DNA from: a virus
Taxonomy: Duplodnaviria; Caudoviricetes
Strand: one strand, 5' to 3'
DNA length: 46,160 nucleotides
Virus record (IMG/VR): IMGVR_UViG_3300045534_000027
Location: 1-46,160 of that record
In this document: in pieces, positions 76-45,906 of the stretch
How the letters are laid out: each line of letters begins with the position of its first letter
Numbering within the stretch: the stretch's first letter is position 1
Position numbers and translations under genes: made by a program
Notes under the pieces: generated by a model
What the model was told of the DNA's origin: nothing
What the model saw: the letters and a program-made list of their open reading frames with translations, nothing else
The model's database searches: none

Positions 76-1293
76 ATGCTTAGAGACTATCAAGAGGACA
101 TATCAAAGAAGGCAAGCCATATCCTTAGAGACAAGGGTATGGTGTACCTCTGTATGTCCGTAAGAACTGGTAAGACGCTGACATCCTTAGAGACTGCCAG
201 ACTGTTCGGAGCTAAGAGAGTCTTATTCCTTACCAAGAAGAAGGCTATATCGTCCATCGAGTCTGACTACATTAACTTTGGGTACGACAAGCACTTCGAG
301 TTGTTCGTACATAATGACGAGTCTATGCACAAGATCGATGGTAAGTTCGACCTGGTGGTCCACGACGAGCACCACCGCTTCGGATCATTTCCAAAGCCAA
401 GTCTTGGGGCTAAGACGTACAAGAAGATGTTCGGTCACCTGCCCGCTATATTCCTGTCAGGCACGCCTAGCCCTGAGAACTATTCTCAGTTCTATCACCA
501 GTTCTGGTGCAGTCTATTCTCACCGTTCAAGGAGGTTAACTTCTACAAGTGGGCTGCTAACTACGTGAATATCAAGATGAAGCACCTAGGCTACGCACAG
601 GTCAAGGACTACACCGATGCTGATATCAACAAGATTATGAGTGTGATAAAGCCGTACATAATAACCTTCACCCAATCGCAGGCTGGCTTCACGTCTGAAA
701 TTGAGGAGGAGATCCTTAAGGTTAGGATGAAGAACTCTACGTACGAAATGTGCGACAGACTACGTAAGGACCTTGTGATAGAGGGTAAGAACCAGGTCAT
801 ACTTGCAGACACCTCTGTCAAGCTACAGCAGAAGCTACACCAGATGTACTCAGGCACCATTAAGTTTGAGAGCGGTGACTCTATGATCATAGATCTAAGC
901 AAGGCTGAGTTTATATCTTCTTACTTTAAGGATAAAAAAATTGGGATATTTTACAAGTTTGTGGAGGAACTTAACGCATTAAAGACTATCTTTGGCGACA
1001 GGTTGACTACAGATCTTGATGAGTTTAACGGGACCGACAAGTCAATAGCGCTTCAGATTGTATCTGGACGTGAGGGGATCTCTCTGAAGAACGCTGAATT
1101 CTTAGTGTTCTACAACATAGACTTCTCAGCCACGAGCTACTGGCAGGCTAGGGATCGAATGACGACCATTGACCGTAAGTTCAACAAGATCTACTGGGTG
1201 TTCTCCGAAGGAGGTATAGAGGAGAAGATCTATAAGTCGGTAATTAAAAAGAAATCATACACAACCAACCACTTTAAAAAGGATTACCTATGA
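76..1293 (+). CDS. SF2 (SNF2/ResIII-like) DNA helicase
   Basis: Q-motif LRDYQ, motif I RTGKT, motif II VVHDEHH, motif III LSGTP, motif V SGREGISL, motif VI QARDRM; VRR-NUC gene nearby as is common in phages. Confidence 0.9.
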   Translation: MLRDYQEDISKKASHILRDKGMVYLCMSVRTGKTLTSLETARLFGAKRVLFLTKKKAISSIESDYINFGYDKHFELFVHNDESMHKIDGKFDLVVHDEHHRFGSFPKPSLGAKTYKKMFGHLPAIFLSGTPSPENYSQFYHQFWCSLFSPFKEVNFYKWAANYVNIKMKHLGYAQVKDYTDADINKIMSVIKPYIITFTQSQAGFTSEIEEEILKVRMKNSTYEMCDRLRKDLVIEGKNQVILADTSVKLQQKLHQMYSGTIKFESGDSMIIDLSKAEFISSYFKDKKIGIFYKFVEELNALKTIFGDRLTTDLDEFNGTDKSIALQIVSGREGISLKNAEFLVFYNIDFSATSYWQARDRMTTIDRKFNKIYWVFSEGGIEEKIYKSVIKKKSYTTNHFKKDYL

Positions 1294-1700
1294 CACAGCA
1301 AGAAGAATTTATGGAGTTGATATCAACTCATCCTATTAAGAAATCAGACCTAGGGTTTCACGGTAACTTGTTTGGAGGAAAGTTACTAGCCTGGATGGAT
1401 GCATCAGCCGCTGCATTTGCGATGCAGGTTTGTGATACACCAAGAATGGTCACCGTGATGATTGATCAGTGTTCCTTTAAAAAACCTGCAAAGGAGGGGC
1501 AATTGATTAAGATTTATGGCAGAGTCTCTAAGGTAGGGAACACGTCCATAACAATTTATATGGAGGCTCGATCACACAGCGTTTATTCTGGACAACAAAA
1601 CACAATACTAGATACAAATATGAAGTTTGTAAGGATAGATGAGGGCGGAGACGCGATACCAATTTCAGGGAAAGTTAAACAAATATATAATAACCTATGA
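1290..1700 (+). CDS. HotDog-fold acyl-CoA thioesterase (YciA-like)
   Basis: DLGFHGNLFGGKLLAWMD signature, VTV-F-KP, VGNTSITI and FVRID motifs; ATGA overlaps with both neighbours. Confidence 0.9.
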   Translation: MTQQEEFMELISTHPIKKSDLGFHGNLFGGKLLAWMDASAAAFAMQVCDTPRMVTVMIDQCSFKKPAKEGQLIKIYGRVSKVGNTSITIYMEARSHSVYSGQQNTILDTNMKFVRIDEGGDAIPISGKVKQIYNNL

Positions 1701-1945: not shown

Positions 1946-2150
1946 GCAGTTAGAGGCTGAAGGGTATTACGTATTAAAATTAATACGTGTAAATAAAACG
2001 GGTATACCAGACATTATAGCTTTAAAGGAAAACGAGATTCTATTCTCAGAGATTAAAACACCTAAGGGCAAGCTGTCTGAGATACAGAAGTACAGAATGA
2101 AAGAATTAGAGAGTTACGGATTTAAAACAGAACTATACAATGGAGAATAA
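1911..2150 (+). CDS. VRR-NUC / PD-(D/E)xK nuclease (Holliday junction resolvase-like)
   Basis: MKEQQIQ, GIPDII, FSEIKTPKGKLSEIQ motifs. Confidence 0.88.
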   Translation: MKEQQIQTKRIKQLEAEGYYVLKLIRVNKTGIPDIIALKENEILFSEIKTPKGKLSEIQKYRMKELESYGFKTELYNGE

Positions 2151-2604
2151 TATAAATGAACTAATAAAAATTATGGAGTTTGAATATAATGTAGACATAT
2201 TCAACAGTAACAGGACGCAGGATTGTGTCGAGGCTAGGGCTATATTTTCAAAGATTATGTACTCGTATCATCATATGGGATACACAAAGATCGGAAGGAT
2301 GCTTGGCAAGAACCACGCCACAATATACCACTACATCAAGAACTTTGATTCTTGGATGAAGTATGACGACAGGCTTAGAAACAAGTACTTTAACGTTTTA
2401 AACGTTTACTCTAAGGGATTGGAGATAAAGGACATAAACGAGACCAACAAGGTCTGGTACGATAATATAGTTTTATCAACAAAAGTTGAGAAGCTTGAGA
2501 ATAAACTGCAGTCTGGCTTGCACGCGCTTGTTGACAAGGTTCCAGCGGACAAGGTTTCTATAGTTTACGAGAGGCTTGAATCAATAATCAAGATGAACTG
2601 TTAA
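2140..2604 (+). CDS. DnaA C-terminal (domain IV)-like HTH DNA-binding protein
   Basis: SNRTQDCVEARAI...YTKIGRMLGKNHATIYH resembles the DnaA domain IV pattern R...IG..F.RDHTTV. Confidence 0.75.
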   Translation: MENNINELIKIMEFEYNVDIFNSNRTQDCVEARAIFSKIMYSYHHMGYTKIGRMLGKNHATIYHYIKNFDSWMKYDDRLRNKYFNVLNVYSKGLEIKDINETNKVWYDNIVLSTKVEKLENKLQSGLHALVDKVPADKVSIVYERLESIIKMNC

Positions 2605-4567: not shown

Positions 4568-4711
4568 ATGGGTAGAAAGGCACAAACAATAACCCCGATG
4601 CAGAGGATAAAGATAGTGATGAACTACCTTCATTTGCGTGGCGGAAATAAGGAATCTGTCAATTCAGTATATAGGAATATACTGAAAGAAAAATTTAAGG
4701 GAGCTATTTAG
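4568..4711 (+). CDS. small basic hypothetical protein (47 aa, not in ORF track)
   Basis: MGRKAQTITPMQRIKIVMNYLHLRGGNKESVNSVYRNILKEKFKGAI*; starts 2 nt after the upstream stop. Confidence 0.65.
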   Translation: MGRKAQTITPMQRIKIVMNYLHLRGGNKESVNSVYRNILKEKFKGAI

Positions 4712-4722
4712 CTCCCTTTTTT
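4697..4722. terminator. intrinsic terminator hairpin at the convergence of the two gene blocks
   Basis: AAGGGAGCT-ATTT-AGCTCCCTT followed by a T-run on the + strand. Confidence 0.8.
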
Positions 4723-7700
4723 AATGACTCTCTACCCCTTAACATCTGGTTGTATATCTTCTCTCCGTACTTGGCTCTAAATTCAGCGTCGGTCAATTTT
4801 ACTTGCTTTTGTTTCATATCTGGAATCTCACCGTACCATAGGTCATTTACAACTCCCTTCCCTATCCCTTCCATAGCGTCATCTATAACCCTATCCTCCA
4901 CACCAAAGAATGAGGCAGCCTTCATATTATCCATTATAGACTTATACATTTCTTTCTGTGCTGAATTTGCTTGGTTGTAGTTAGACTCTAACTCTTCAGC
5001 GGTCATCTTTCCATCCTCAAACTTATAGAACGCTGAGTTATATAATCTCTTAGCCTCTCTAATATCGTCCTTAGATTTGTTCATCTTAAACCCTAACTGT
5101 TGCCCTACATCTATAGTTATAACCTTATATCCAGTTAGCTGTCCAGCAAGCTCGTTACCTACGTTCTCTGCCTGAGCTATCTTTCTTGCAGATGTTAAAC
5201 TTCCAGGTTCTAATACCTTGTAAAATCTTTCTGCTACTGCGTTGATCTTGTTTACATTGGTGTCAGCATCATTGTACAGCTTACCTCCGTATGAGTTCTC
5301 GTTATTATTAATATCTGTTATAGCCTCAAGAAGCATATCCTTCTTAACAAACGGTCCAAGTATCTCTGACATTCCATTTGTAAAAGACTCCACAGCACCA
5401 TCTCCAGCCATAAATGAGTTGTAAGCCTTCTTAATACCACCGTGTGGATCTGATGCGCTAAAGTCTACGTAGGAGAACTTACCGTTTCCGTATTCAACAA
5501 GTGCCAGATCTGATTTCTTTGACCACTCTGGAACGAACTCTCTTACGTTCTTGTTTAATTTATCTTCCTCATCATCGTCATCTCCTCCTCTAAGAACGGT
5601 TCCTATAGCTGTCATAAGTCCAAACTTAACAGACTGAGAGAACGCTATTCCTGCTAGCCTTTTGGCTCCTATAGCCTTTATTTTCTTGTTGCTAGAACTA
5701 AGCTCGTCAAATGCTAGAGCCACTGTGTTCCACGCTGTCCTGTAAGCCTCTGCCTGGAACGATATAAACGTACCAGTCACAGGAGCTATTTTTATAAGCT
5801 TAACTAGACCAGGGATCCTAGCGTAGTTTGGAAGAACGTTCTTAGTATTCTCAGCGGCAATATTACTCACCATAATCTTCTGGTCTTCGGTTAACTGGTC
5901 AAATGGTTTCTGAAATTCAGCGTTAGAGTATCTATCCTTCTCGCTCTCGTATGACACGATCTTGTAGAAGTCATCCTCCAGTTGATATGCCGTGTTTAAC
6001 TTAGTGATAACCCATCTAGCTGCCTTCTTAGCTTTTTCTAAAGGGTTCTTCTTCAACCTGTTCTCTATAGCTGTATCAAAGTCTGCGTCAGAGAACATAG
6101 ACTTTATCTCTCCAAGTGCGGCACTCTGATCTATAATTCCAGCACGAATGTACTCGTCTAACTTATCTCTAAGCTGCTCATTACTTGAGTTCCTAAGTAC
6201 ATTGAATGCCTCACCATACTTCTTATAGTTGAAGTAACCGTTAGAAAGCATAAACCAGATGTTACCAGTGACGTTCTTAAAATGAGTGGCTACAGACGCT
6301 ATAGTCTTGTTCCACTTTACTACAGACAGCAGCTTCATATAATTTGTATACAAACTTACCACTGAAGATGCTACGTTTGGACCTACAAATCCCTCTATAA
6401 ACTTCTCTGCACTTATACTAGTCTTGAATGCGTCTGCTATCTCTTTAGTAGTGAAAAGACCGTTAAGAGGGTTCATTGTCTCGCTACCCTCTCCAGCTAT
6501 TTGAACATTAAACTCTGAAGGTTTGTTTATGTCCCCCTCCTTAAAGAAGAAGACTCCCATACCAGCATCTCTAGCAGACTGCAAGAATCTAGCGTTCTCA
6601 GCAAGAGTGGCAATCTTAATAACTGTCCTTGCGTAGTTCTGAGATGCGTCAGTGTACTCACCCATTAACTGTCTTATTGATAGTGGTATGTCCAGACGTT
6701 GCTTCATAATAGATAAATCCTTAGATCCAGTCTTACCAATTCCTAAGAATGTAGCGGCAGACTCTCCACTTATTAACTCATCTATCTTGTCGTTTATAAA
6801 CTTCTCAAGTATTATATCTGCATCCATACCAGTCTGCTTAGCCTTAGCCTCAGCACTAGCCCTGTACATATTTCTTAGGTCAACCCTAGCAGCCTCCTTC
6901 ATCTCCTCTGTAACCTGCTTAGCCCAGTTCTTCTTGTCGAATACCTGGTAGGACCTATTTATGTACTGACCTAAGTTTGCAGCTATAGTCTCAGCCTGGC
7001 TTACAGTAACTGCACCTGTTCTAAGTAGCATCTGAGATAGGTTGTCTATGTGCATACGCATCTTTCCAGCGACAGCCTTAAACTCATCAGGCAGCACAGC
7101 AGTCTGATCACCCCTTAGGTACCTATCGAACTCATCATTTAAAGCATTTAAATCCCCTTTATATCCCTTAACAAGTTTGTTAAAGTCATCAACTAGGTAT
7201 GAAGCCCTCTTAGCCTCAGCCTTTATGTTTGCCTCTATGCCTTCCTTAAGTATAAATACAGACTTAGGTAGGAATGACTTAGCCGATAGAGCCCTTCTCT
7301 TTACCTGGTCTAGGAATGTGACGATCTTATTTCTACCCTCCTTAGTAAACACGCTGTCTTCCTTTCTTAGTTTTTCAGCGGTAACCTTATTGTACCTAAG
7401 TATAGCGTTTGTAGCCTGTTCCCTTGTGTACCCCTTACCAACTAGGTAGTCAGCTATCTCCTTGTCGTTAAATCCTTTTCTCTTTGCAGTCTCAACAGCA
7501 GTGTCTATAGGACTCTTCTGTCTTCTTCCAGAGACAAACTTAGGCATAACACCATTCTTCAATGACGAGGCAGCCTCTCTAAACTGCTCGGCAGTTAGCT
7601 TCATAGGATTCAGTCCGTCACCACCAGTCTTAACATTCTCAAACGTATCCAGATCAAATAGAGACTCCTGTCCAATAATAGCACCAAACTCAAGGGCAAC

Positions 7701-10700
7701 CTCTCTGTGCTCTCTAGGGATAACTATATTCATATCCACAGATACATCTACTTTTTTTGGGAATTTGTATATACCTAGCTTAACCATAGTCTCATCTCCA
7801 ACGCTGTCCTCGTTCTCCTTTGCAAAGTCTCCAATCATCTCAGGAGATAGCTTCTCTTGAGTTGTGTTTCCTTCTATAGAGTTTAAAGGCACCACAAGAC
7901 CACCACCCTCGTACTTCGTTCCGTCTAGGTTAAACGTAGCTCCATCCTCGGCATTTATTGGAAGAGCCTTAACCCTTTCAACCTCTGCCTTAGTGTTTTT
8001 AGCTATAGCCTTAGCGTCTACCTGTTTCCTACCTTCAATATTAATTGCTTCTGCTTTTTTAATTTGTTTTGGATCAAATACTACATATTGTCCTCCTTTA
8101 TATCCAAAATCACCTGTTGACTTAGCTATAAACCCATCTGTATTAGGTTCATAATTTTTAGGTATGTCTTTTGCATCAATAGCATCTACTATTGTTGGAT
8201 TTTTCATATCTAAATATGCACTATGTATCTTAGCGTATTTAAAATATTTTTCAGGGAAAGGATCTCCTGTGCTTAATAATTCTTCAGGTATATCACTATA
8301 ATCATCACCTCTTTTATCTCTTTCAAATACTTCAGCTTGATGAGCAAAAAATTCAGCAAAATCTTTATTTTCTGTAAAATAAATACCCTTATCGTTTTTA
8401 TTTTGAGATGGGTTAAAATCATCAAACTTTATTCCTCCGTGATATACTAAAAGTGGAGCTCCTGTATTATCAATTGCTTTTGTATCTTTTAATTCAGGAT
8501 ATATATTTAATATTTTTTCTTTCTGTCTTCTACCAGACATCCTAGCCCCTGGCTCGTAAGCCAAAGCCTCAGCGTATGCGTCCTTCATCTCTTGAGATAT
8601 GTCTGAGCTTTCGATCATATCTGTTATCTTATCCTGAGATAATTTAGGGAAGTCCTCAGCTAGGCTGTATAGGCTGTCGTATCTATTCTTTGAGTTCCTC
8701 TCAGCGTTTATCTTTTGGTACACATCCTTCAGCTTAGCCTCCTTAGATGTAGGTATTACAGGTTCAAATCCCTTTGTTGAGTTTGACTCGTAGTCCTCTT
8801 GGAATGGTTTTGATATAACATTACCGTCCATAACCTGCGTGTCCACAGGCTTAAGAGCCTTAGTAGACTGTGCTCTGCTCATATCGTTCCACTCTGCAAC
8901 GGTCATATCATACCCAGCCTTCTCGGCTAGCTTGGTTATGTACGCAAGCTGATCGTTCGCTGTGAACGGAAGGTCTGGATGCTTAGCCTTGAACATCTCC
9001 TTAGCTTTGTCGTATAGATTATCTGGATCTGTATTGAAGTCGTACACCTTGTCCATAGGGACCTTGATCATATACTTGTCTCCAGACACGTTTGACTCTT
9101 GGTACTCAGGCATAGTGTAGAACTGAGACATCCCTCCGACTCTGCCCATAGCTGCGATCTCTGGCTTTGACGTTATCGCTCCCTTGTTCGATCCGTACTT
9201 CTTAGGATCTATAGCCTTTATCCCTCTTGGACCAAAGTGATAGAATACAAAGTTACCCTTTCCATCCTCCGTCATATTGGCATAGTTGGATGAGTTCTCT
9301 GGAGAGATTTGTTTTCTGCCTTTTACTTTGTCTTTAGAGGTTTCTTTTGCCTCTTCATTAGCTATCTCTATACCTTTATTCAAGCCATCAGATACATATG
9401 CGGCATCTTCATTAGCTCCAAGCATCTCGTAAAGCCTCTTCTCAAAATCCCAAATTCTTTCTTGAACCATAGCTGGAGATGTACCTAAATTATTAGCCAC
9501 AATCTTAAACGCCTTATCAGCAAGCTCTCTCTTTCTCTTTCCCTCCTTTGTAGACTCAGCCCAAGGTGTCTTTATCGCACTCTCCTTGCCTGTCTCTTTA
9601 TCTATACCAACTAACTTTTCACCAGAGAGTCTTGCCATAGTTCTAGCGTACCACATATCTTTTGTTACGGTAGAAAAATTTCCAAATCTGTTAAGTATAT
9701 ACGATCCTAACTTAGCCCCAGTCATACCAAAGACTCCTATACCTCCATCTTCTTTAGACAGGTACTCATTCTCCTTGGTTGCTTTTGGTCCGCTCAATGG
9801 ATATCCAAACATATCAGATATATCTTTAAATGAGTGCTTGGATGTCATCCAGTCCATAGCTTTTTTTAAGTCGCCATTATTCTTGTCCAGTATAGCTTGA
9901 AATTTTTCTATACCAGTCTGAGAGTACGCTGGAGTAACCTTGCTTCTTATAGGATTTCCTTTAGAGTCTAACTTAGGTATCCCTATGTCTACTCTTTTTT
10001 TATTTGGAAGTGTCTCCCATACAGTTGCCATCTTGTCTGAATACCCAGACAGCTCTCCTGTCTTCATATATCTATTGAATATATAAAAACCTTTCCAAGA
10101 GTCCATATATGGATTTGCAGACGGAGATGCAAACGCACTAACAAGATGAAACAGCTTCACCTCCTCATCTTTAAGTTCTCTTCCGTAATTTTCCTTTGCG
10201 TATTTTTGAAGGGTTGGGTTTGCTTTTTTTGCTATATCCTCATCGTAAAACGACACGTATTTATCTCCCTGAACCTTGCTCCACGCATTTAACTCTGCAG
10301 ATATGTGGTTCACAAACTCCTTTACAACAACATCATCTGACACATCTTTAATGTCTTTATCGAAAAGTTTATTTTCATTCGCCCAAATATCTAAGAAATT
10401 TGCAACATCCTTTGTAGATGATAGTTTTGGTTTTGTATCTGTCAAGAATAGATCTTCAGCTTGTCTTCTTTTTCTTTTGCCTGACAAAGTATTCTCTTCT
10501 AGTATTTTATTTTTTCCTAAGACTTTACCAACATCTCCCTCAGTAATCTCTTGACCATACGCAACCTTAGTAGCTATGGCATTCATAAAGTCTAAAACCT
10601 GCTTATCTGTGAACGGCTTCATCTTAAGCATCACGGCAATCTTTTCAAGCCACTTCTGAATAATATTCTTAGAAACGTCTGGAAGAGTCTCGTACTCTGA

Positions 10701-13700
10701 GGCTAGGTAACCTAGAACTTCAGATAGTTTTTCTTCAGCCCAAATTTCTTTTTCATCAGAGTATCCTTCCTCGACAAACGTATTAATTTTATCCATAACA
10801 TCTGGTCTGCTGGCTAGAGATTTTGCAACCGCCTTTAGCATTCTATTTGTAATCCTAGTGGCAGGTTTCCCGTCTAATATATAGTTCAGCAACACAGCGT
10901 GAAACACCTCGTGAGCGACAGTTGTATTGGTTGCGTTGGATCCATTGATATGAATTATGTTCTTACCTCTACTATCCTTATTCATATTGTAGAAGCCTCT
11001 ATCGTTTCTTCCTACAGTATTAAAGAAAGACTCTGCAGTCTCGTGATACACAATCTCCACGTTAGGTAATAGTTTTGATAGTGCCTTCTTGGCTCTAGCT
11101 ATCTGCTCCTTAATATTACTTGACGCAGGCGTTATAACCTCGTCAAGCGTGGTCTCTATCTCACTCGGAGCTATCTCTTCTGTTGCTAACTCTATTGGCT
11201 TTGCTTCTGCTTTAACTTCTGCAACGCTTGGCTCAACAACTTCACCTGTTGTTTCTGCGGTAGCTTCTTCAGCCTCTCTAAGTTGTCTGTTAAGTTCTTC
11301 ATCGTTCTCTAGTATTTCATTAATAGCTTGTCTCTGTTCTTCAGTCTGCGTTTGATTTAGCAGTGTTTGATATGCAATATCCTCAGCAATCTGCCCCTCG
11401 TACATCACGGTCTTTCCGCTGTCGTCCTTAAGAGACACCGCCTTTACATTTCCGTCTGTGTCGTACTCTACTCCGTTATTAGGAAGTTCTGTCTGTATAT
11501 TCCACGTATTATCACCAACCTTAATCTTACCCTCAGGAGTCACACTCATAAGTTCGGTCTGAGGCTGTATGCCTAAGTCTTCAACCTTAGTGTCTGAAAT
11601 TTCGTCAACATTTCCTAGATCGTACGTCTTATTATTTTTATCTTCAAATATAACACGTTGCCCTTCTTGATATATATTACCCTCCACAGGAGCATCTAAC
11701 TTAGCGCCTCCAAACGATTCAAGAGTAGCTGGTCTATTCAAAACATCAGATACTCTCTGTCCAGAGGTTATAGGTTTAGCTTCAACAGCTGCTGTTTCTG
11801 TTTTTACTTTTTCTTCAGCAATAACTTTAGGTGCAACAACTTCAACAGCTGGTGCTTTAGTCTCTGACTCTAATAATTGTATGGCTCTCTTGGTTATTTC
11901 GGAATCATTTATAGTTATCGTTTTTGTTCCGTCTGGATTAAGCTCCTTCATAAGCTCTCTAGCGGCCTTATCCTTTAACCTTATCACCTCAGCAGATGGA
12001 AGCTCAGTAAGCTTATTATAACCACCTTGAAGGGTGGTGTTTCTTTTTTCTTCTAACTTAGAGTACTCATCCTTTAATTCATTTATAAATGTTTCCTTCT
12101 GCTCTTTAGAAAAATTAGAGTCCTTTATTTCTTGAAGTTTAGCTTTTAATTCTGCCTGTTTTACATTAATATCTACTAAAAATTGAGTCTCTTGCGCGTT
12201 AAAATCTTTACCTTTTTTTGCGTTTTTAGATACAATATCAAATGACTGATTTGTAAGTTCATTCATTTTTTTATAGCTAATCACTCTTTCCTCTGGAGTT
12301 AAGTTAGGGTTGTTTTTTACCTCATCACTTAATCTTTCTATTTGAGATAGGATTTCTTTTGTTTTTTTAATGTCTTTGTTATCAGAGTATATCCTTGCCT
12401 TTTGTGCAATTCCTCCCCACACTCCTCCAATCATAGTCATACCTCCGCCCATTAATCCACCAGCTACAAAGCTTTCAAATCTCCTTTCGTTTGCTTGCTG
12501 TGTTGATATTTCTTTCCCAGCAATATACCTGTCTGCGGCAATTTGAGCCTCGGCTGTCAAATACTCTGTCCCTCCTTCTAGTCCAAAATTGTAACCGAAT
12601 TGTTTCCCTAATCTAGAAACCTCCTGCATCGCTCCATCTTCAATTAGTTTTCTTGAAGGATTTGATGCCTTCGCTATGGATTTTTCAATATTTTTTAAAA
12701 CAGAAACAGTACCCAATCTTTCAAAAAGAGCTTCTGCCCCTCCATACATATAAGAGGTTGCTAATTTTTGACCGAAGGATGTTTTCTTGGCAAATGGTTG
12801 TGATTCCTCGATCTCCATTGTTCTGAATTGTTCTCCTCCAGTTCCTGCTCCAAGTAGTGCTGGTCCTAATTCTGGAGCAATTGCCAATGTTACAAATACA
12901 GGTAGTTGCTCCGTACCTAATCCAGCCATAAAGGATCCTACATCTGAGAAGTTACTTATGTCTTTTGCCTTGTACTTTATAAATTGCTCTCTATCCTCCG
13001 AAGCCTCATCTAGAACTTCATTAGCCATCTTAATATTACCCTCTCTAAAGCCGTATACGTCAGTATCTAAACCTGTCTTCTCGTCAAGATATCTAGCCGT
13101 CTCCTCCATTAATTTTACAGTTCCACCAGCTATTCCTTTTGCAAAGTTTTTAATATTTGAAAGATGCTTTTCGTAGTCGTTGTAGTTATACTTAAACACA
13201 TCAAGCAGTTCATCGCTTGACTTTACTTCTTCTAGTATTTTTGGAAATTTTTGATCTAGGTACTTAAGACCTTCTAAGGACTCATTAGCGTTACCAAGAA
13301 GTTCGTTATATTTATCAACTTGCGCCTGAGTTATTTGCTCCCTAGGTATATTTTTTAAAGAGTTGTAGTATTTTTCAAACTCATTTATTTGACCTTTATA
13401 AATATCAGCAGAAATAACAGCTTCTTTTAATGAGCTATTCTTTTTTAGATTATCTAATTTTAATTCCTTCCAAATGCCCTGTCTGTCATAATCTTCAGGA
13501 AGGTTCGCGTCAATTCTTTTTTCTAGTTGCTTTCTTTTATCGTTTATTCTAAAGATGTCCTCTGCTCTTTTTTGGATGTTATCACCTGTTATAGGCAGAC
13601 CTTCTTTCTCTAACTCTTTCTTGGCTTGTATTTTTTCTTCCTGTAGTGGCTTGTATTCATCAATAGTAAAGTAATCTTTAGTACCACCTAAGGCTTCGTT

Positions 13701-14177
13701 TATGGATGATAAACCAGCACCAGTGACGTTCCATATTGATTTAGCAGCCTTGCCTAGATTATTTAAAATTCCAGACTGATTTTTTTCTTCTAAAAGTCTT
13801 TCCTCTGTTATATTTTCATCAACCTCGGACTTAGCTTTTTTAAATACTTGTACTGCGTAGCTTTCAGAAGGCTGCTGTGTCTTTTGTTGTTCACTAACTA
13901 TAGCCCCAACTGCACCTTTACCTCCAAACGCATCAATGCTTTGAAAAGGACTACTTGTTGGACCACCTAAAGCAACCGAAGCCTGCGCTCTTGTTGGTGG
14001 CTCTGTATCCGATGAAGTACTTGGCTGAGTAGGTCTCGTAGGAGATCCCCCAGCTTTTTCTTGTGAAGTGGGCTCTGAAGATCCTTTTTTTTTTATAGGT
14101 ATGCCGAACTCGTCAACAGCTTGTTTTTTAGTTGCAGTCTTTTTAATCGGTATTCCAAATTCATCAACTTCGTCCAT
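4704..14177 (-). CDS. giant (3157 aa) virion/ejection polyvalent protein: zincin metallopeptidase, HhH glycosylase-like, two ART-like and other modules
   Basis: Last gene of the structural block after two ejection-type genes; HEVFH...EE zincin motif; LLVYHG...GIYFT...YVVFDPKQIK ART-PolyVal-like motif; repeated GR[RK]Q linkers. Confidence 0.8.
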   Translation of the reverse strand: MDEVDEFGIPIKKTATKKQAVDEFGIPIKKKGSSEPTSQEKAGGSPTRPTQPSTSSDTEPPTRAQASVALGGPTSSPFQSIDAFGGKGAVGAIVSEQQKTQQPSESYAVQVFKKAKSEVDENITEERLLEEKNQSGILNNLGKAAKSIWNVTGAGLSSINEALGGTKDYFTIDEYKPLQEEKIQAKKELEKEGLPITGDNIQKRAEDIFRINDKRKQLEKRIDANLPEDYDRQGIWKELKLDNLKKNSSLKEAVISADIYKGQINEFEKYYNSLKNIPREQITQAQVDKYNELLGNANESLEGLKYLDQKFPKILEEVKSSDELLDVFKYNYNDYEKHLSNIKNFAKGIAGGTVKLMEETARYLDEKTGLDTDVYGFREGNIKMANEVLDEASEDREQFIKYKAKDISNFSDVGSFMAGLGTEQLPVFVTLAIAPELGPALLGAGTGGEQFRTMEIEESQPFAKKTSFGQKLATSYMYGGAEALFERLGTVSVLKNIEKSIAKASNPSRKLIEDGAMQEVSRLGKQFGYNFGLEGGTEYLTAEAQIAADRYIAGKEISTQQANERRFESFVAGGLMGGGMTMIGGVWGGIAQKARIYSDNKDIKKTKEILSQIERLSDEVKNNPNLTPEERVISYKKMNELTNQSFDIVSKNAKKGKDFNAQETQFLVDINVKQAELKAKLQEIKDSNFSKEQKETFINELKDEYSKLEEKRNTTLQGGYNKLTELPSAEVIRLKDKAARELMKELNPDGTKTITINDSEITKRAIQLLESETKAPAVEVVAPKVIAEEKVKTETAAVEAKPITSGQRVSDVLNRPATLESFGGAKLDAPVEGNIYQEGQRVIFEDKNNKTYDLGNVDEISDTKVEDLGIQPQTELMSVTPEGKIKVGDNTWNIQTELPNNGVEYDTDGNVKAVSLKDDSGKTVMYEGQIAEDIAYQTLLNQTQTEEQRQAINEILENDEELNRQLREAEEATAETTGEVVEPSVAEVKAEAKPIELATEEIAPSEIETTLDEVITPASSNIKEQIARAKKALSKLLPNVEIVYHETAESFFNTVGRNDRGFYNMNKDSRGKNIIHINGSNATNTTVAHEVFHAVLLNYILDGKPATRITNRMLKAVAKSLASRPDVMDKINTFVEEGYSDEKEIWAEEKLSEVLGYLASEYETLPDVSKNIIQKWLEKIAVMLKMKPFTDKQVLDFMNAIATKVAYGQEITEGDVGKVLGKNKILEENTLSGKRKRRQAEDLFLTDTKPKLSSTKDVANFLDIWANENKLFDKDIKDVSDDVVVKEFVNHISAELNAWSKVQGDKYVSFYDEDIAKKANPTLQKYAKENYGRELKDEEVKLFHLVSAFASPSANPYMDSWKGFYIFNRYMKTGELSGYSDKMATVWETLPNKKRVDIGIPKLDSKGNPIRSKVTPAYSQTGIEKFQAILDKNNGDLKKAMDWMTSKHSFKDISDMFGYPLSGPKATKENEYLSKEDGGIGVFGMTGAKLGSYILNRFGNFSTVTKDMWYARTMARLSGEKLVGIDKETGKESAIKTPWAESTKEGKRKRELADKAFKIVANNLGTSPAMVQERIWDFEKRLYEMLGANEDAAYVSDGLNKGIEIANEEAKETSKDKVKGRKQISPENSSNYANMTEDGKGNFVFYHFGPRGIKAIDPKKYGSNKGAITSKPEIAAMGRVGGMSQFYTMPEYQESNVSGDKYMIKVPMDKVYDFNTDPDNLYDKAKEMFKAKHPDLPFTANDQLAYITKLAEKAGYDMTVAEWNDMSRAQSTKALKPVDTQVMDGNVISKPFQEDYESNSTKGFEPVIPTSKEAKLKDVYQKINAERNSKNRYDSLYSLAEDFPKLSQDKITDMIESSDISQEMKDAYAEALAYEPGARMSGRRQKEKILNIYPELKDTKAIDNTGAPLLVYHGGIKFDDFNPSQNKNDKGIYFTENKDFAEFFAHQAEVFERDKRGDDYSDIPEELLSTGDPFPEKYFKYAKIHSAYLDMKNPTIVDAIDAKDIPKNYEPNTDGFIAKSTGDFGYKGGQYVVFDPKQIKKAEAINIEGRKQVDAKAIAKNTKAEVERVKALPINAEDGATFNLDGTKYEGGGLVVPLNSIEGNTTQEKLSPEMIGDFAKENEDSVGDETMVKLGIYKFPKKVDVSVDMNIVIPREHREVALEFGAIIGQESLFDLDTFENVKTGGDGLNPMKLTAEQFREAASSLKNGVMPKFVSGRRQKSPIDTAVETAKRKGFNDKEIADYLVGKGYTREQATNAILRYNKVTAEKLRKEDSVFTKEGRNKIVTFLDQVKRRALSAKSFLPKSVFILKEGIEANIKAEAKRASYLVDDFNKLVKGYKGDLNALNDEFDRYLRGDQTAVLPDEFKAVAGKMRMHIDNLSQMLLRTGAVTVSQAETIAANLGQYINRSYQVFDKKNWAKQVTEEMKEAARVDLRNMYRASAEAKAKQTGMDADIILEKFINDKIDELISGESAATFLGIGKTGSKDLSIMKQRLDIPLSIRQLMGEYTDASQNYARTVIKIATLAENARFLQSARDAGMGVFFFKEGDINKPSEFNVQIAGEGSETMNPLNGLFTTKEIADAFKTSISAEKFIEGFVGPNVASSVVSLYTNYMKLLSVVKWNKTIASVATHFKNVTGNIWFMLSNGYFNYKKYGEAFNVLRNSSNEQLRDKLDEYIRAGIIDQSAALGEIKSMFSDADFDTAIENRLKKNPLEKAKKAARWVITKLNTAYQLEDDFYKIVSYESEKDRYSNAEFQKPFDQLTEDQKIMVSNIAAENTKNVLPNYARIPGLVKLIKIAPVTGTFISFQAEAYRTAWNTVALAFDELSSSNKKIKAIGAKRLAGIAFSQSVKFGLMTAIGTVLRGGDDDDEEDKLNKNVREFVPEWSKKSDLALVEYGNGKFSYVDFSASDPHGGIKKAYNSFMAGDGAVESFTNGMSEILGPFVKKDMLLEAITDINNNENSYGGKLYNDADTNVNKINAVAERFYKVLEPGSLTSARKIAQAENVGNELAGQLTGYKVITIDVGQQLGFKMNKSKDDIREAKRLYNSAFYKFEDGKMTAEELESNYNQANSAQKEMYKSIMDNMKAASFFGVEDRVIDDAMEGIGKGVVNDLWYGEIPDMKQKQVKLTDAEFRAKYGEKIYNQMLRGRESLKKGAK

Positions 14178-32872: not shown

Positions 32873-33083
32873 TGATTAACTCCTTCTCTAATTCGATTCG
32901 ATTAAGTATTTGAAAGGCATCCTCTATTGCAAGCCTCTTGGTAGCGGCAGCGTTCTTAAGTTTATCTGCCGTCAGGTCTGTCTCGTCTCCAGTAATAATC
33001 TTATCCTCAGCGACCTTTATAAGCTCATCAACAGCCTTGTATCCAGCCTCGATGATTCTCTTTTTTATATCCGTTAGTTCCAT
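32811..33083 (-). CDS. putative terminase small subunit
   Basis: 90-aa helical protein directly upstream of and overlapping terL. Confidence 0.5.
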   Translation of the reverse strand: MELTDIKKRIIEAGYKAVDELIKVAEDKIITGDETDLTADKLKNAAATKRLAIEDAFQILNRIELEKELINGESKTKEPTIKGFAEGRSK

Positions 33084-33640
33084 TTGATTGTAATATTTTT
33101 AGTGAACATCCTGTACAGTTTCTCTCCGTCAATGTTAAACTCGTACTCGCTGTCTGGCTCGAACGAAACCTCGTCACCTTCTACAACTCCTAACTCTCTA
33201 AGTTCATCGTTTGAGTACTTGACAACTCCAATAAGCGGCTCGTATACGCCACCCTTGCTTATGTATGACTCACGTGTCTTCACTGGTTTTATAAAGCAGT
33301 ACTTAGAGTGTGTCCTCCACTCACCGTTGTGGTTGTACATAAAGTACTGGTCCTCATCGACAAAGAAAAGGTCGTCCTTCAAGAAGCTTGTTCCGCTCCT
33401 CTCCTTACCCTTCATGTCGTAGTAAATCTTAAACGTGTTGTGGTGAACTAGAAGTATGTCACCGACACAGATGTCGCCAACATAGTTATTTGGGACTGAC
33501 ACAACCTCGGCAAACCTGTTTGTTGCCGTGTGGTCCTCCTGAGATACACTGGTTATAAAGTTGATATCGCCTATCTTCTTTATATTGTCGTACCTCCTAC
33601 CGTTTGTAGGTCTAACGACAAAGTAAAATGGCGATTTCAT
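33074..33640 (-). CDS. tandem GroES-like (co-chaperonin-fold) protein
   Basis: Two repeats: FVVRP...AEVVSVP...VGDILL and CFIKPV...GVVKY...EGDEVSFEPDSEYEFNIDGEKLYRM. Confidence 0.6.
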   Translation of the reverse strand: MKSPFYFVVRPTNGRRYDNIKKIGDINFITSVSQEDHTATNRFAEVVSVPNNYVGDICVGDILLVHHNTFKIYYDMKGKERSGTSFLKDDLFFVDEDQYFMYNHNGEWRTHSKYCFIKPVKTRESYISKGGVYEPLIGVVKYSNDELRELGVVEGDEVSFEPDSEYEFNIDGEKLYRMFTKNITIKWN

Positions 33641-44319: not shown

Positions 44320-45906
44320 CTATTGCTGTCTTGTTAAGGTTATAATCGCATTCGTGCTCAGTATCGTTGTGGCTACACTGACCGCGTTCTTCAGCGCGTT
44401 CTTCGTAACCTTCAGCGGATCTATGATCCCCATCCCGAACATATCACCGTAGCACTCGTTCTTCACATCGTAACCGTGACCTGCTGTGTCCACGTCTGAC
44501 ATTATCTCGTAGCCGTCCTTCCCAGCGTTGTCCATTATCTGCAGCAGCGGTGACTGTATCGCCCAGCCAACGATCTGCATCGCGGTGTACTGGTCGTGGC
44601 TTATGTGGTCCATACTGTCGTCAGCGTACTCTATGATGTCGGACGCGATATTAAACAGCGCCACACCACCACCTGGCAGTATGCCCTCCTCCAGCGCTGA
44701 CCTTACCGCGCAGACCGCGTCGTCAACCCTGTCGTACCTCTCCTTCTGCTCCACGTCCGAGCCTCCTCCGACATATATAACACCAACACCGCCTGTAAGA
44801 GACGCTATACGCTCCTTTATGGCATCCCTGTCGCCCTTTCTCGTTGAGTTGTTGTGCTGTATCCATAATTGTTCAACACGCTCTCTAATCGCCTCGTTTG
44901 AGGTCTCGCTTCGAACCAGCACGGTGCTGTCCCTTCCGACGATCACCCTGTCCGCCTTTCCAAGGTGGTCTATAGAGATTAAACTCAAATCATCACCCGT
45001 CTGCTCGCTGAAGTACTTAGCCCCAACCGCAAGCGCGATGTCCTGCATCAGCTCCTGCTGCTTGTAGCCAAACTGTGGTGGCTGGATGTTACAGAACTTC
45101 AAGTTATTATGAGCCACGTTCGCAGCCAGCGTGTTGATCACGTTGCTGGTGCACGGTCCAATTATCAATAGCTTCTTCTGCCCGTTTATGATCGGCTTCA
45201 GCACGTTCTCAATCGAGAGTATGTTACTTATCTCCTGGTCGGTCACCATAACGTACACGTCCTCCATTATGCACTCCTCCTTCTTCATATCGTTCACGAA
45301 GAGCCTGCTCGTGTACCCACGTCCTATCTTTATCCCGTTGGTAACCTCGCTGTAGGTCTTGTCCGTCTGTGAATTCTCGACCGTAACGATCCCCTCCCTG
45401 CCGACCTTGTTGTACGCGTCAGCGATTATAGCACCCAGCTCCTTATCATTATTAGCAGATATAGAGGCAACGTCCTTCAGCGTCTTGCCGCTCACCTTCT
45501 TGCTCATCTTCTCCAGACTCTTCACAACACCATCCACTACGGTGTTCACGTTACGCAACACCTCAGTCGGGTTGTTTCTCTCCGTGATGAACTCGTTTCC
45601 CCTTGTGACCATAGCCTCCGTCAGCACGATCGCTGTCGTAGTCCCGTCACCTGCGCTGGTCGCAGTCCTGTCGGCTGCCTCCTTCATCATACGCACCGCC
45701 AGGTTCTCAACTGGATCCTTTAGGTTGATCGATTTTGCAACCGTCACACCGTCCTTGGTCACGGTTATACCGTGCACGTGGTTCTGTGATTCAATCAGCA
45801 CGGTCTTACCTCTCGGTCCTAGCGTGCTCTTTACCGCCTTGCTGATAGTAGTTATACCATTAACCAGCTTGTCTCTTCCCTCCTTGTCAAATACTAAGTC
45901 GTTCAT
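44320..45906 (-). CDS. groEL: chaperonin GroEL
   Basis: TLGPRG, VTKDGVTVAK, AGDGTTTA, EEGILPGGG and GIIDPLKV motifs. Confidence 0.97.
   Translation of the reverse strand: MNDLVFDKEGRDKLVNGITTISKAVKSTLGPRGKTVLIESQNHVHGITVTKDGVTVAKSINLKDPVENLAVRMMKEAADRTATSAGDGTTTAIVLTEAMVTRGNEFITERNNPTEVLRNVNTVVDGVVKSLEKMSKKVSGKTLKDVASISANNDKELGAIIADAYNKVGREGIVTVENSQTDKTYSEVTNGIKIGRGYTSRLFVNDMKKEECIMEDVYVMVTDQEISNILSIENVLKPIINGQKKLLIIGPCTSNVINTLAANVAHNNLKFCNIQPPQFGYKQQELMQDIALAVGAKYFSEQTGDDLSLISIDHLGKADRVIVGRDSTVLVRSETSNEAIRERVEQLWIQHNNSTRKGDRDAIKERIASLTGGVGVIYVGGGSDVEQKERYDRVDDAVCAVRSALEEGILPGGGVALFNIASDIIEYADDSMDHISHDQYTAMQIVGWAIQSPLLQIMDNAGKDGYEIMSDVDTAGHGYDVKNECYGDMFGMGIIDPLKVTKNALKNAVSVATTILSTNAIITLTRQQ

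Follow-up and report, generated by a model that had tools for sequence, protein, structure and literature searches.

A short tag at the module borders of a giant phage polyvalent protein tracks a predicted zincin in the same chain

Introduction

The question raised by the DNA studied here is why one short basic motif should recur at the borders between the domains of a very large phage protein. The DNA is a stretch of 46,160 nucleotides from an uncultured, aquatic-type phage of the Caudoviricetes, IMG/VR record IMGVR_UViG_3300045534_000027, referred to below as the window. The protein has 3157 residues and is encoded on the minus strand by the final gene of a structural operon (4704..14177). 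It contains a zincin-like metallopeptidase domain followed by four modules and a terminal domain, and the motif, which we call the tag and which has the general form R-x-[QS], stands at each of these borders. We find that the tag sits at domain borders rather than inside domains, that it is conserved at the level of protein, that its presence tracks that of a zincin in the same chain, and that modules turn over between one tag and the next. Judged from the sequences, it is probable that the tags are sites at which the zincin cleaves its own chain, within a polyvalent protein that is itself likely to be packaged in the virion.

Polyvalent proteins have been described by Iyer et al. (2017; PMC5512222), who, in the accessible part of their text, propose that metallopeptidase (MPTase) domains process these proteins into separate units, and who also allow for host targets. 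The window protein is similar in being a large product of a late operon that holds, in a single chain, an MPTase motif and an ART-PolyVal domain above the Pfam cut-off, and LPD23, GNAT and methyltransferase modules are found in its relatives; it is accordingly placed in this class. The same part of the text gives no recognition site (the word 'linker' is absent from it, and 'cleavage site' appears solely within a reference), and literature searches, covering open texts without supplements, found no paper describing such a cut site. The protein class and the proposal of autoprocessing are thus already known, and what is new here is the tag, its dependence on the zincin in cis, and its protein-specific versions.

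Architecture of the 3157-residue protein

The gene is divided as follows, in order from the N-terminus, where ART is ADP-ribosyltransferase and GC3 is the GC content at third codon positions.

11130..14177 (-), N-terminal region, residues 1-1016, with an acidic linker before the zincin and a sole tag-like sequence, KRKQ, at residues 214-217
10482..11129 (-), zincin-like metallopeptidase (MPTase) and following linker, residues 1017-1232
10461..10484 (-), tag 1, SGKRKRRQ (GKRKRRQ, residues 1233-1239; core RRQ, residues 1237-1239), zincin / module A
9321..10460 (-), module A, about 380 residues, DUF7178-like
9309..9320 (-), tag 2, GRKQ, residues 1620-1623, A / B
8535..9308 (-), module B (predicted ART fold, residues 1624-1780) and helical domain B2 (to residue 1881)
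8523..8534 (-), tag 3, GRRQ, residues 1882-1885, B2 / ART
8034..8522 (-), ART-PolyVal module (PF18760, E 2.3e-10), GC3 0.08
8022..8033 (-), tag 4, GRKQ, residues 2049-2052, ART / D
7530..8021 (-), module D, an alpha/beta domain of about 160 residues with a confidently folded model
7518..7529 (-), tag 5, GRRQ, residues 2217-2220, D / terminal domain
4704..7517 (-), small helical domain (CA) and conserved C-terminal domain (C1), about 940 residues; PHROG 22602, with phage homologues

A first-pass annotation, made from the letters alone, had reported the five motifs and the HEVFH sequence of the zincin, and re-checking the open reading frame (ORF) recovered all of them at the same coordinates. 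It also saw no further copy of the motif in the protein. This is correct for GR[RK]Q, of which four copies are observed against 0.038 expected (a number reached in 0 of 2000 shuffles, the pattern having been chosen post hoc), but R[RK]Q without the glycine has one further copy, at residue 215; it is absent from 25 other ORFs of the window (10,129 residues). The glycine is in fact not part of the motif, being present at position -1 in only 8 of 99 sites in the family.

The expectation that domain borders coincide with the motifs is borne out. BLAST alignments to relatives, made blind to the motif, break at the tags (1624-1881, 2053-2212 and 2218-end), and relatives show module swaps between tags. 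At locus L017 (labels of this form denote loci of relatives; L081 and L287 are the phages elemoA and elemoD, and L165 is Bacteroides phage BF1-TP2), RKQ precedes the same module A, following a different linker. Structure prediction, which had been suggested as a check, goes only part of the way: the tags fall on or next to the boundaries of confidently folded parts of the model, but their own low confidence partly reflects the absence of alignment rows there. The five copies vary at synonymous positions, and no DNA repeat family joining them was found when one was looked for.

The modules had been described as four unrelated domains, which does not hold, in that the third is ART-PolyVal by Pfam and the second is also predicted to have an ART fold. 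The model of module B is confident, and its residues 39-182 match 6kyf (Z 7.5, rmsd 3.7, 120 residues aligned), followed by RES/ParT/MbcT folds; this Z score is below the value of 8 under which the tool advises caution, and comparison with the ART-PolyVal profile gives only 8%. PDB entry 6KYF is AcrIF11, as stated in the available text of 10.1101/2024.08.26.609590. The fold of module B also matches residues 1418-1629 of chain B of PDB 9k3a, the pre-ejectosome of cyanophage A4 (Z 5.8), which hints at an ART-fold domain within a solved ejection protein. The ART-PolyVal module itself was poorly modelled (its alignment is shallow).

Module A is 70% identical to the module of L017, and gave zero hits in Pfam and PDB searches; its Atlas score for DUF7178 is 0.97 but with low recognition, which is weak evidence. 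Module D matched no named family in profile searches, and fold searches gave no resolution. Profile searches against PDB sequences with the zincin and modules A, B and D produced no convincing match. A suspected resemblance to phage SAM lyases (for module D) and to HhH-GPD glycosylases (for module A) gained no support and was dropped.

The gene shares strand and block with the muzzle, portal and terminase genes, which are late virion genes, and it has homologues at 80 IMG/VR loci and in the elemo phages. The protein is assigned to PHROG 22602 (virion structural), and gp123 of Cellulophaga phage phi18:3, with which it has the C-terminal domain in common, carries an annotation as virion protein by tandem mass spectrometry (MS/MS). 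These two indirect lines of evidence make it likely that the protein is packaged in the head and enters the host by ejection. Its N-terminal region has a single weakly hydrophobic stretch (residues 425-445).

The zincin domain

The zincin has HEVFH at residue 1089 (10899-10913), EE at residues 1148-1149 (10731-10736) and a further glutamate, E1153. It therefore shows the HExxH helix and downstream glutamate that are asked of a gluzincin-type MPTase. TVAHEVFH and EE are invariant in 59 of 59 aligned relatives, and E1153 is conserved at at least 90%. The model (pLDDT 77) has a helix, three strands and then the HExxH helix, and its best structural matches, which are weak, are to lethal-factor-type and PPEP zincins (Z 4.2-5.2, rmsd 4.3-5.5). 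The zincin profile matches IrrE weakly (E 0.03), and Foldseek against the PDB found nothing at E <= 0.001 with either of the two models searched.

RKQ or RRQ also occurs some 65-80 residues before HEVFH in L014, L017, L019, L037, L053, L054, L068, L074, L077 and L080, where it could free the protease from the N-terminal part; the window protein carries KEQ at this place. The density of strict tags (defined below) in the 35 residues immediately before the zincin is 4.08 per 1000 residues.

Tags among relatives

Searching IMG/VR with the zincin turned up 80 loci, which with the window and elemoA made 82 proteins, or 60 after removal of near-duplicates. Junctions were scored using 22 module profiles. 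A broad tag was defined as R-x-[QS] or K[FY]Q, and a strict tag as R[KRFY]Q. The general pattern beyond the zincin is of a variable linker ending in R-x-[QS], directly after which the similarity between proteins resumes. Of 118 junctions, 101 have a broad tag and 71 a strict one. Omitting 9 whose profile starts away from the start of the module leaves 109 post-zincin junctions, of which 99 carry a broad and 71 a strict tag, compared to chance rates of about 6% and 0.4%. The density of strict tags is 3.72 per 1000 residues in the variable region, but 0.22 within modules, 0.16 in the N-terminal part, 0.06 in the terminal domain and 0.27 in other ORFs.

The same tendency is seen when the motif is not used. 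Of 302 alignment starts, 72 fall no more than 10 residues from a strict tag, against 2.7% for random positions; before the zincin the figure is 0 of 436. The modules themselves are highly variable, with 41 distinct post-zincin architectures in 49 C-complete proteins, an upper figure since unmodelled regions were left unscored.

Position of the tag and its link to the zincin

Modules B, D and Hh occur on both sides of the zincin, and thus allow the same module to be compared in two settings. A broad tag precedes 12 of 12 post-zincin copies (10 of them strict) and 0 of 22 pre-zincin copies. The separate counts are 9/9 against 0/10 for B, 1/1 against 0/8 for D, where four of the eight pre-zincin rows are of a distant subtype whose start is poorly estimated, and 2/2 against 0/4 for Hh. 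The trees have one post-zincin clade of B (support 100), with the B of the window apart from it amid pre-zincin copies, a post-zincin group of Hh (ignoring the row of L187, an artefact of a partial hit), and the D of the window again amid pre-zincin copies. This suggests at least three independent placements behind a zincin, and more if the modules of the window came separately. The ending RR[ST] of B2 is also seen in the pre-zincin position.

The terminal domain offers a second comparison. Searches with terminal domains return proteins with and without a zincin, and 58 rows passed the score filter. At the junction before this domain a tag is present in 32 of 36 proteins with a zincin in cis (26 strict; 22 of the 36 rows were first found by means of the zincin), and in 3 of 15 complete proteins without one (1 strict), the chance rate in the stretch scanned being 13% for the broad tag. 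N-truncated proteins have it in 2 of 4 cases and proteins with another HExxH in 2 of 3. The rows without zincin are scattered across the tree of C1, partly on weak branches. Tag presence hence tracks the cis zincin, and versions of the tag agree within proteins, with co-deletion and shared ancestry as alternative causes.

A third comparison is provided by the ART module of L082, which is 88% identical in DNA to that of the window over residues 1887-2042. The shared DNA starts one codon past the lysine that follows tag 3 and ends before tag 4, and in L082 the module has tag-free linkers on both sides, within a protein of 1982 residues that lacks HExxH. L082 does encode a HEAGH protein, two genes downstream of this zincin-less giant. 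The intervening gene is ferritin-like by eye, and the gene beyond it starts with the HEAGH zincin (L082:12184-13775), a naturally split arrangement.

Protein-level conservation and cassette exchange

At 99 sites, the codons for lysine, phenylalanine and glutamine follow the background, and arginine is encoded by both AGR (76) and CGN (20). The glutamine codons CAA and CAG are used 54 and 33 times at tags, with 54.2 and 32.8 expected. Identical residues at tags of the same protein have the same codon in 92 out of 164 cases, with 90.1 expected, and the mean identity of flanks between tags is 9.8/30 against 9.0 for random pairs. Nucleotide conservation at the junctions beyond codon usage was therefore tested for and not found. 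Since codons vary freely at the tag and flanks are near random, the tag is maintained at the protein level, and the suggestion in the first-pass annotation that the DNA encoding it doubles as a recombination junction is unsupported; the cassette shared with L082 excludes the tags.

Exchange of modules is nonetheless visible in base composition. Along the window gene, GC3 shifts abruptly where the tags stand (0.33, 0.53, 0.08, 0.40), while that of the L082 gene is low throughout (0.16-0.18), and together these suggest that the ART cassette came from a donor similar to L082, in the direction that we infer. The ART-PolyVal module of the window is likely to be a recent acquisition. The elemoA and elemoD genes (L081:4594-15678 and L287:301-11574) differ by wholesale replacement of residues 140-826 and are otherwise 98.7% identical; a cassette change between tags is ruled out for this pair, as the swap is N-terminal and in a tag-free region.

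Tag versions

Within the clade of the window, the version of the tag agrees within proteins more than expected (1.38 compared to 1.17 +/- 0.06, 69 pairs), a level reached in 0 of 2000 permutations that preserved the class of the downstream module. The zincin group of L030, L035 and L038, for example, favours RSQ.

Distant giant proteins that carry ART have, at the homologous position, IRFS, IRYS, IRFR, IQMS, IQFS, ITFS or IKFQ. For the 27 giants with a parsable ART end, the residues at that end are found again elsewhere in the chain 42 times, where 18.2 are expected (2.31-fold, where the null gives 1.17; 0 of 2000 permutations), a part of these recurrences having been checked for a position at a domain border. 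A fixed pattern, [ILV][RK][FY][SQR], is mildly enriched in 39 distant giants, at 0.66 per 1000 residues after the first HExxH, 0.33 before it and 0.37 expected. A second cultured example with a different version is gp68 of BF1-TP2 (L165:7282-18183), which has four clean [IV]RFR[ES] tags. The ART search with a single sequence returned one locus only.

Small stand-alone ART-PolyVal proteins without zincin also end in I-R-[FY], and that at L091:9935-10531 ends in DIRY followed by the stop codon. At L086, L088, L089, L105, L110, L134, L136 and L140 the ART ends in DIR[FY]xxGG, mostly in small proteins. Some of these repeat [FYH]xxGG before the ART, as a different linker code and without this zincin. 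L158:9893-13440 has four consecutive ART genes, three of them with a near-identical leader of the type MEIRYLLDKL, which we take to resemble capsid-targeting peptides.

Phage and host

The window is linear and represents about 76% of the genome. By Pfam and PHROG, it encodes a portal, a terminase, a crAss-type muzzle protein, GroEL and a GroES-like gene. Its features outside the giant gene include the following.

44320-45906 (-), GroEL-type chaperonin (Pfam, E 5e-65)
33074-33640 (-), GroES-like protein adjoining the terminase (PHROG 13932)
1290-1700 (+), 4HBT thioesterase-family gene in the replication block
2140-2604 (+), DnaA C-terminal HTH-like gene in the replication block

The nearest cultured matches to the zincin are in 68 records of Flavobacterium elemo phages, at 36-37% identity among the 40 matches listed, and the C-terminal domain has homologues in Cellulophaga phages phi18:3, phi13:2, phi19:3 and others. 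On the basis of these matches the host is likely to be one of the Bacteroidota and the virion of podovirus type.

Proposed function of the tag and its alternatives

We hypothesise that the polyvalent protein is carried in the head and enters the host by ejection, and that, either inside the head or after ejection, its intact zincin cleaves the chain at the R-x-[QS] tags. This would release four modules, two of them with predicted ADP-ribosyltransferase folds, and the terminal domain, and the predicted products are of about 138 (N-terminal part plus zincin), 43, 30, 19, 18 and 105 kDa. A reader of the tag that cuts is the most likely kind, given that the catalytic residues of the zincin are invariant. 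The simplest explanation for a protein-level tag that is confined to borders, is gained behind the zincin, is lost with it, and has a version that follows the carrier protein would be a reader encoded in the same chain. Cutting, the zincin as cutter and the roles of the modules as effectors are what we infer. A cassette arriving behind the zincin would persist only after gaining a flanking tag readable by that zincin, and this would explain both the presence of tags at new borders and the single version per protein. The bond cut may be that after the middle residue (R-K|Q), a guess based on the stand-alone ART that ends in DIRY.

The wider proposal is that polyvalent proteins of many clades are true polyproteins, in which each zincin has co-evolved with its own site of the [IV]-R-[FYK]-[SQR] type (RKQ, RSQ, RFS, RFR, QMS and others) and captured cassettes have been fitted with that site. 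This is plausible, although we would tip the balance slightly against it.

Several observations weigh against cleavage by the zincin. For an enzyme that has to leave host and phage proteins uncut, the motif is short and loosely defined, and the fold match of the zincin is weak (best Z 5.2; none with Foldseek). The junction count is partly circular, in that the broad pattern was set post hoc and module seeds were placed just after tags; the motif-blind figure (72/302) is weaker, and the shared ancestry of the relatives means that p-values overstate independence. Ten of the 109 junctions lack even a broad tag, among them both MPT>K junctions. Loss of the tag may be co-deletion with the zincin, given its position between zincin and terminal domain, and L193 has KKS near that place. 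L082 has a single RKQ about 80 residues upstream of the ART. In gp68 of BF1-TP2, three of the four IRFR-type tags precede HExxxH, so that the rule of tags only downstream fails there and is specific to the clade of the window.

Known zincin-bearing proteins are also divided. DdrB of phage P1, reported to be processed to 76 kDa (PMC5512222, accessible part), is similar in having a C-terminal HExxH MPTase, with KRFS about 110 residues before HELGH, but has one site and no string of modules; a cut at KRFS would give about 82 kDa rather than 76, so that DdrB is no clean positive control. The N4 virion RNA polymerase gp50 (vRNAP) is likewise a giant ejected multidomain protein with an HExxH domain before a large C-terminal domain, but, as far as the available text of PMC13434306 goes, it is packaged and was solved as a full-length chain, carries a polymerase and has no variable cassettes. 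ArdC and TraC1 are transferred whole, and the protease activity of ArdC is dispensable for conjugation (PMC7213743, PMC5512222, accessible parts).

The last two cases suggest an alternative that we regard as unlikely, namely that the tag is a non-proteolytic signal, such as a docking strand for the zincin or the ejection channel that orders unfolding, threading and refolding while the chain stays whole, as N4 vRNAP does in the manner of beads on a string. Binding would account no less well than cutting for a tag that is conserved in the protein and linked to the zincin. It does not explain why the catalytic residues are invariant in 59 sequences, or why zincin-less proteins with the same terminal domain and modules go without tags despite a similar passage through the tail. 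It is somewhat less likely still that the tags are cut by another enzyme, either of the host or a phage head-maturation protease, and that the zincin acts on something else, such as a host protein or peptidoglycan. For a metallopeptidase of this kind, an action on peptidoglycan is proposed in the accessible part of a preprint on phi24B (10.64898/2026.04.10.717836), host targets are allowed in that of PMC5512222, and with about 76% of the genome in the window a protease could lie beyond it. Against this, no prohead protease is among the hits for the window ORFs scanned, the tag is missing from other virion ORFs and mostly from zincin-less relatives, and its version varies from protein to protein, contrary to what one would expect of a host enzyme common to all.

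The tag might also be no more than a last strand that some modules conserve (such as the D-I-R-[FY] end of ART-PolyVal), together with chance matches in basic linkers. Stand-alone zincin-less ART-PolyVal proteins do have the I-R-[FY] end, and B2 keeps its RR[ST] end before the zincin, but the tag comes after the zincin linker and after a wide range of unrelated modules, the same module occurs elsewhere without it, and its version changes with the carrier protein; we find this explanation very improbable. Least credible, and largely refuted, is a junction at the DNA level (microhomology or a site-specific target) for cassette exchange, with the peptide as a by-product. The precise exchange of modules between tags and the GC3 steps would suit it, as would the longer flank repeats of a few proteins (APQSRKQ in L053; 17-18 of 30 upstream bases in L050). 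However, synonymous positions are free, no DNA repeat family links the five tags, flanks are close to random, the DNA shared with L082 leaves out the tags, and the elemoA/elemoD swap lies where there are none.

Implications

Self-cleavage by the zincin would have parallels in viral polyproteins with consensus cleavage sites and in the prohead-protease processing of T4 and phiKZ, where a short motif at domain borders is read by a virus-encoded protease. In the window protein, by contrast, a metalloenzyme that forms part of the cargo is the candidate protease; its tag does not occur in other virion proteins, and its modules are cassettes that can be exchanged. Among its own relatives, phi18:3 gp123 has the C-terminal domain in common but neither HExxH nor a tag of RKQ type. 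The elemo structural protein QLF85284.1 belongs to the same zincin clade (37% identity) and has module B, with other modules and another terminal domain; its tags are RFQ, RQQ and RMQ at about residues 1683, 2079 and 2302. The cultured Flavobacterium elemo phages thus carry three such sites, and provide a culturable phage and host in which to test the proposal.

The examples of polyvalent zincins conflict, DdrB being processed while N4 vRNAP and ArdC remain whole, and a site that tracks the zincin names the exact bonds to be examined. The tags also give natural borders for expressing orphan modules (DUF7178-like, ART-fold and module D) in anti-defence screens. If the proposal is true, a DNA phage delivers at infection a cuttable string of exchangeable effectors, which would explain how cassettes can be added without disturbing ejection. 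Under the wider proposal, sequence would suffice to tell which effectors are released, and the zincins would make up a large family of metalloproteases, sequence-specific but divergent in what they recognise.

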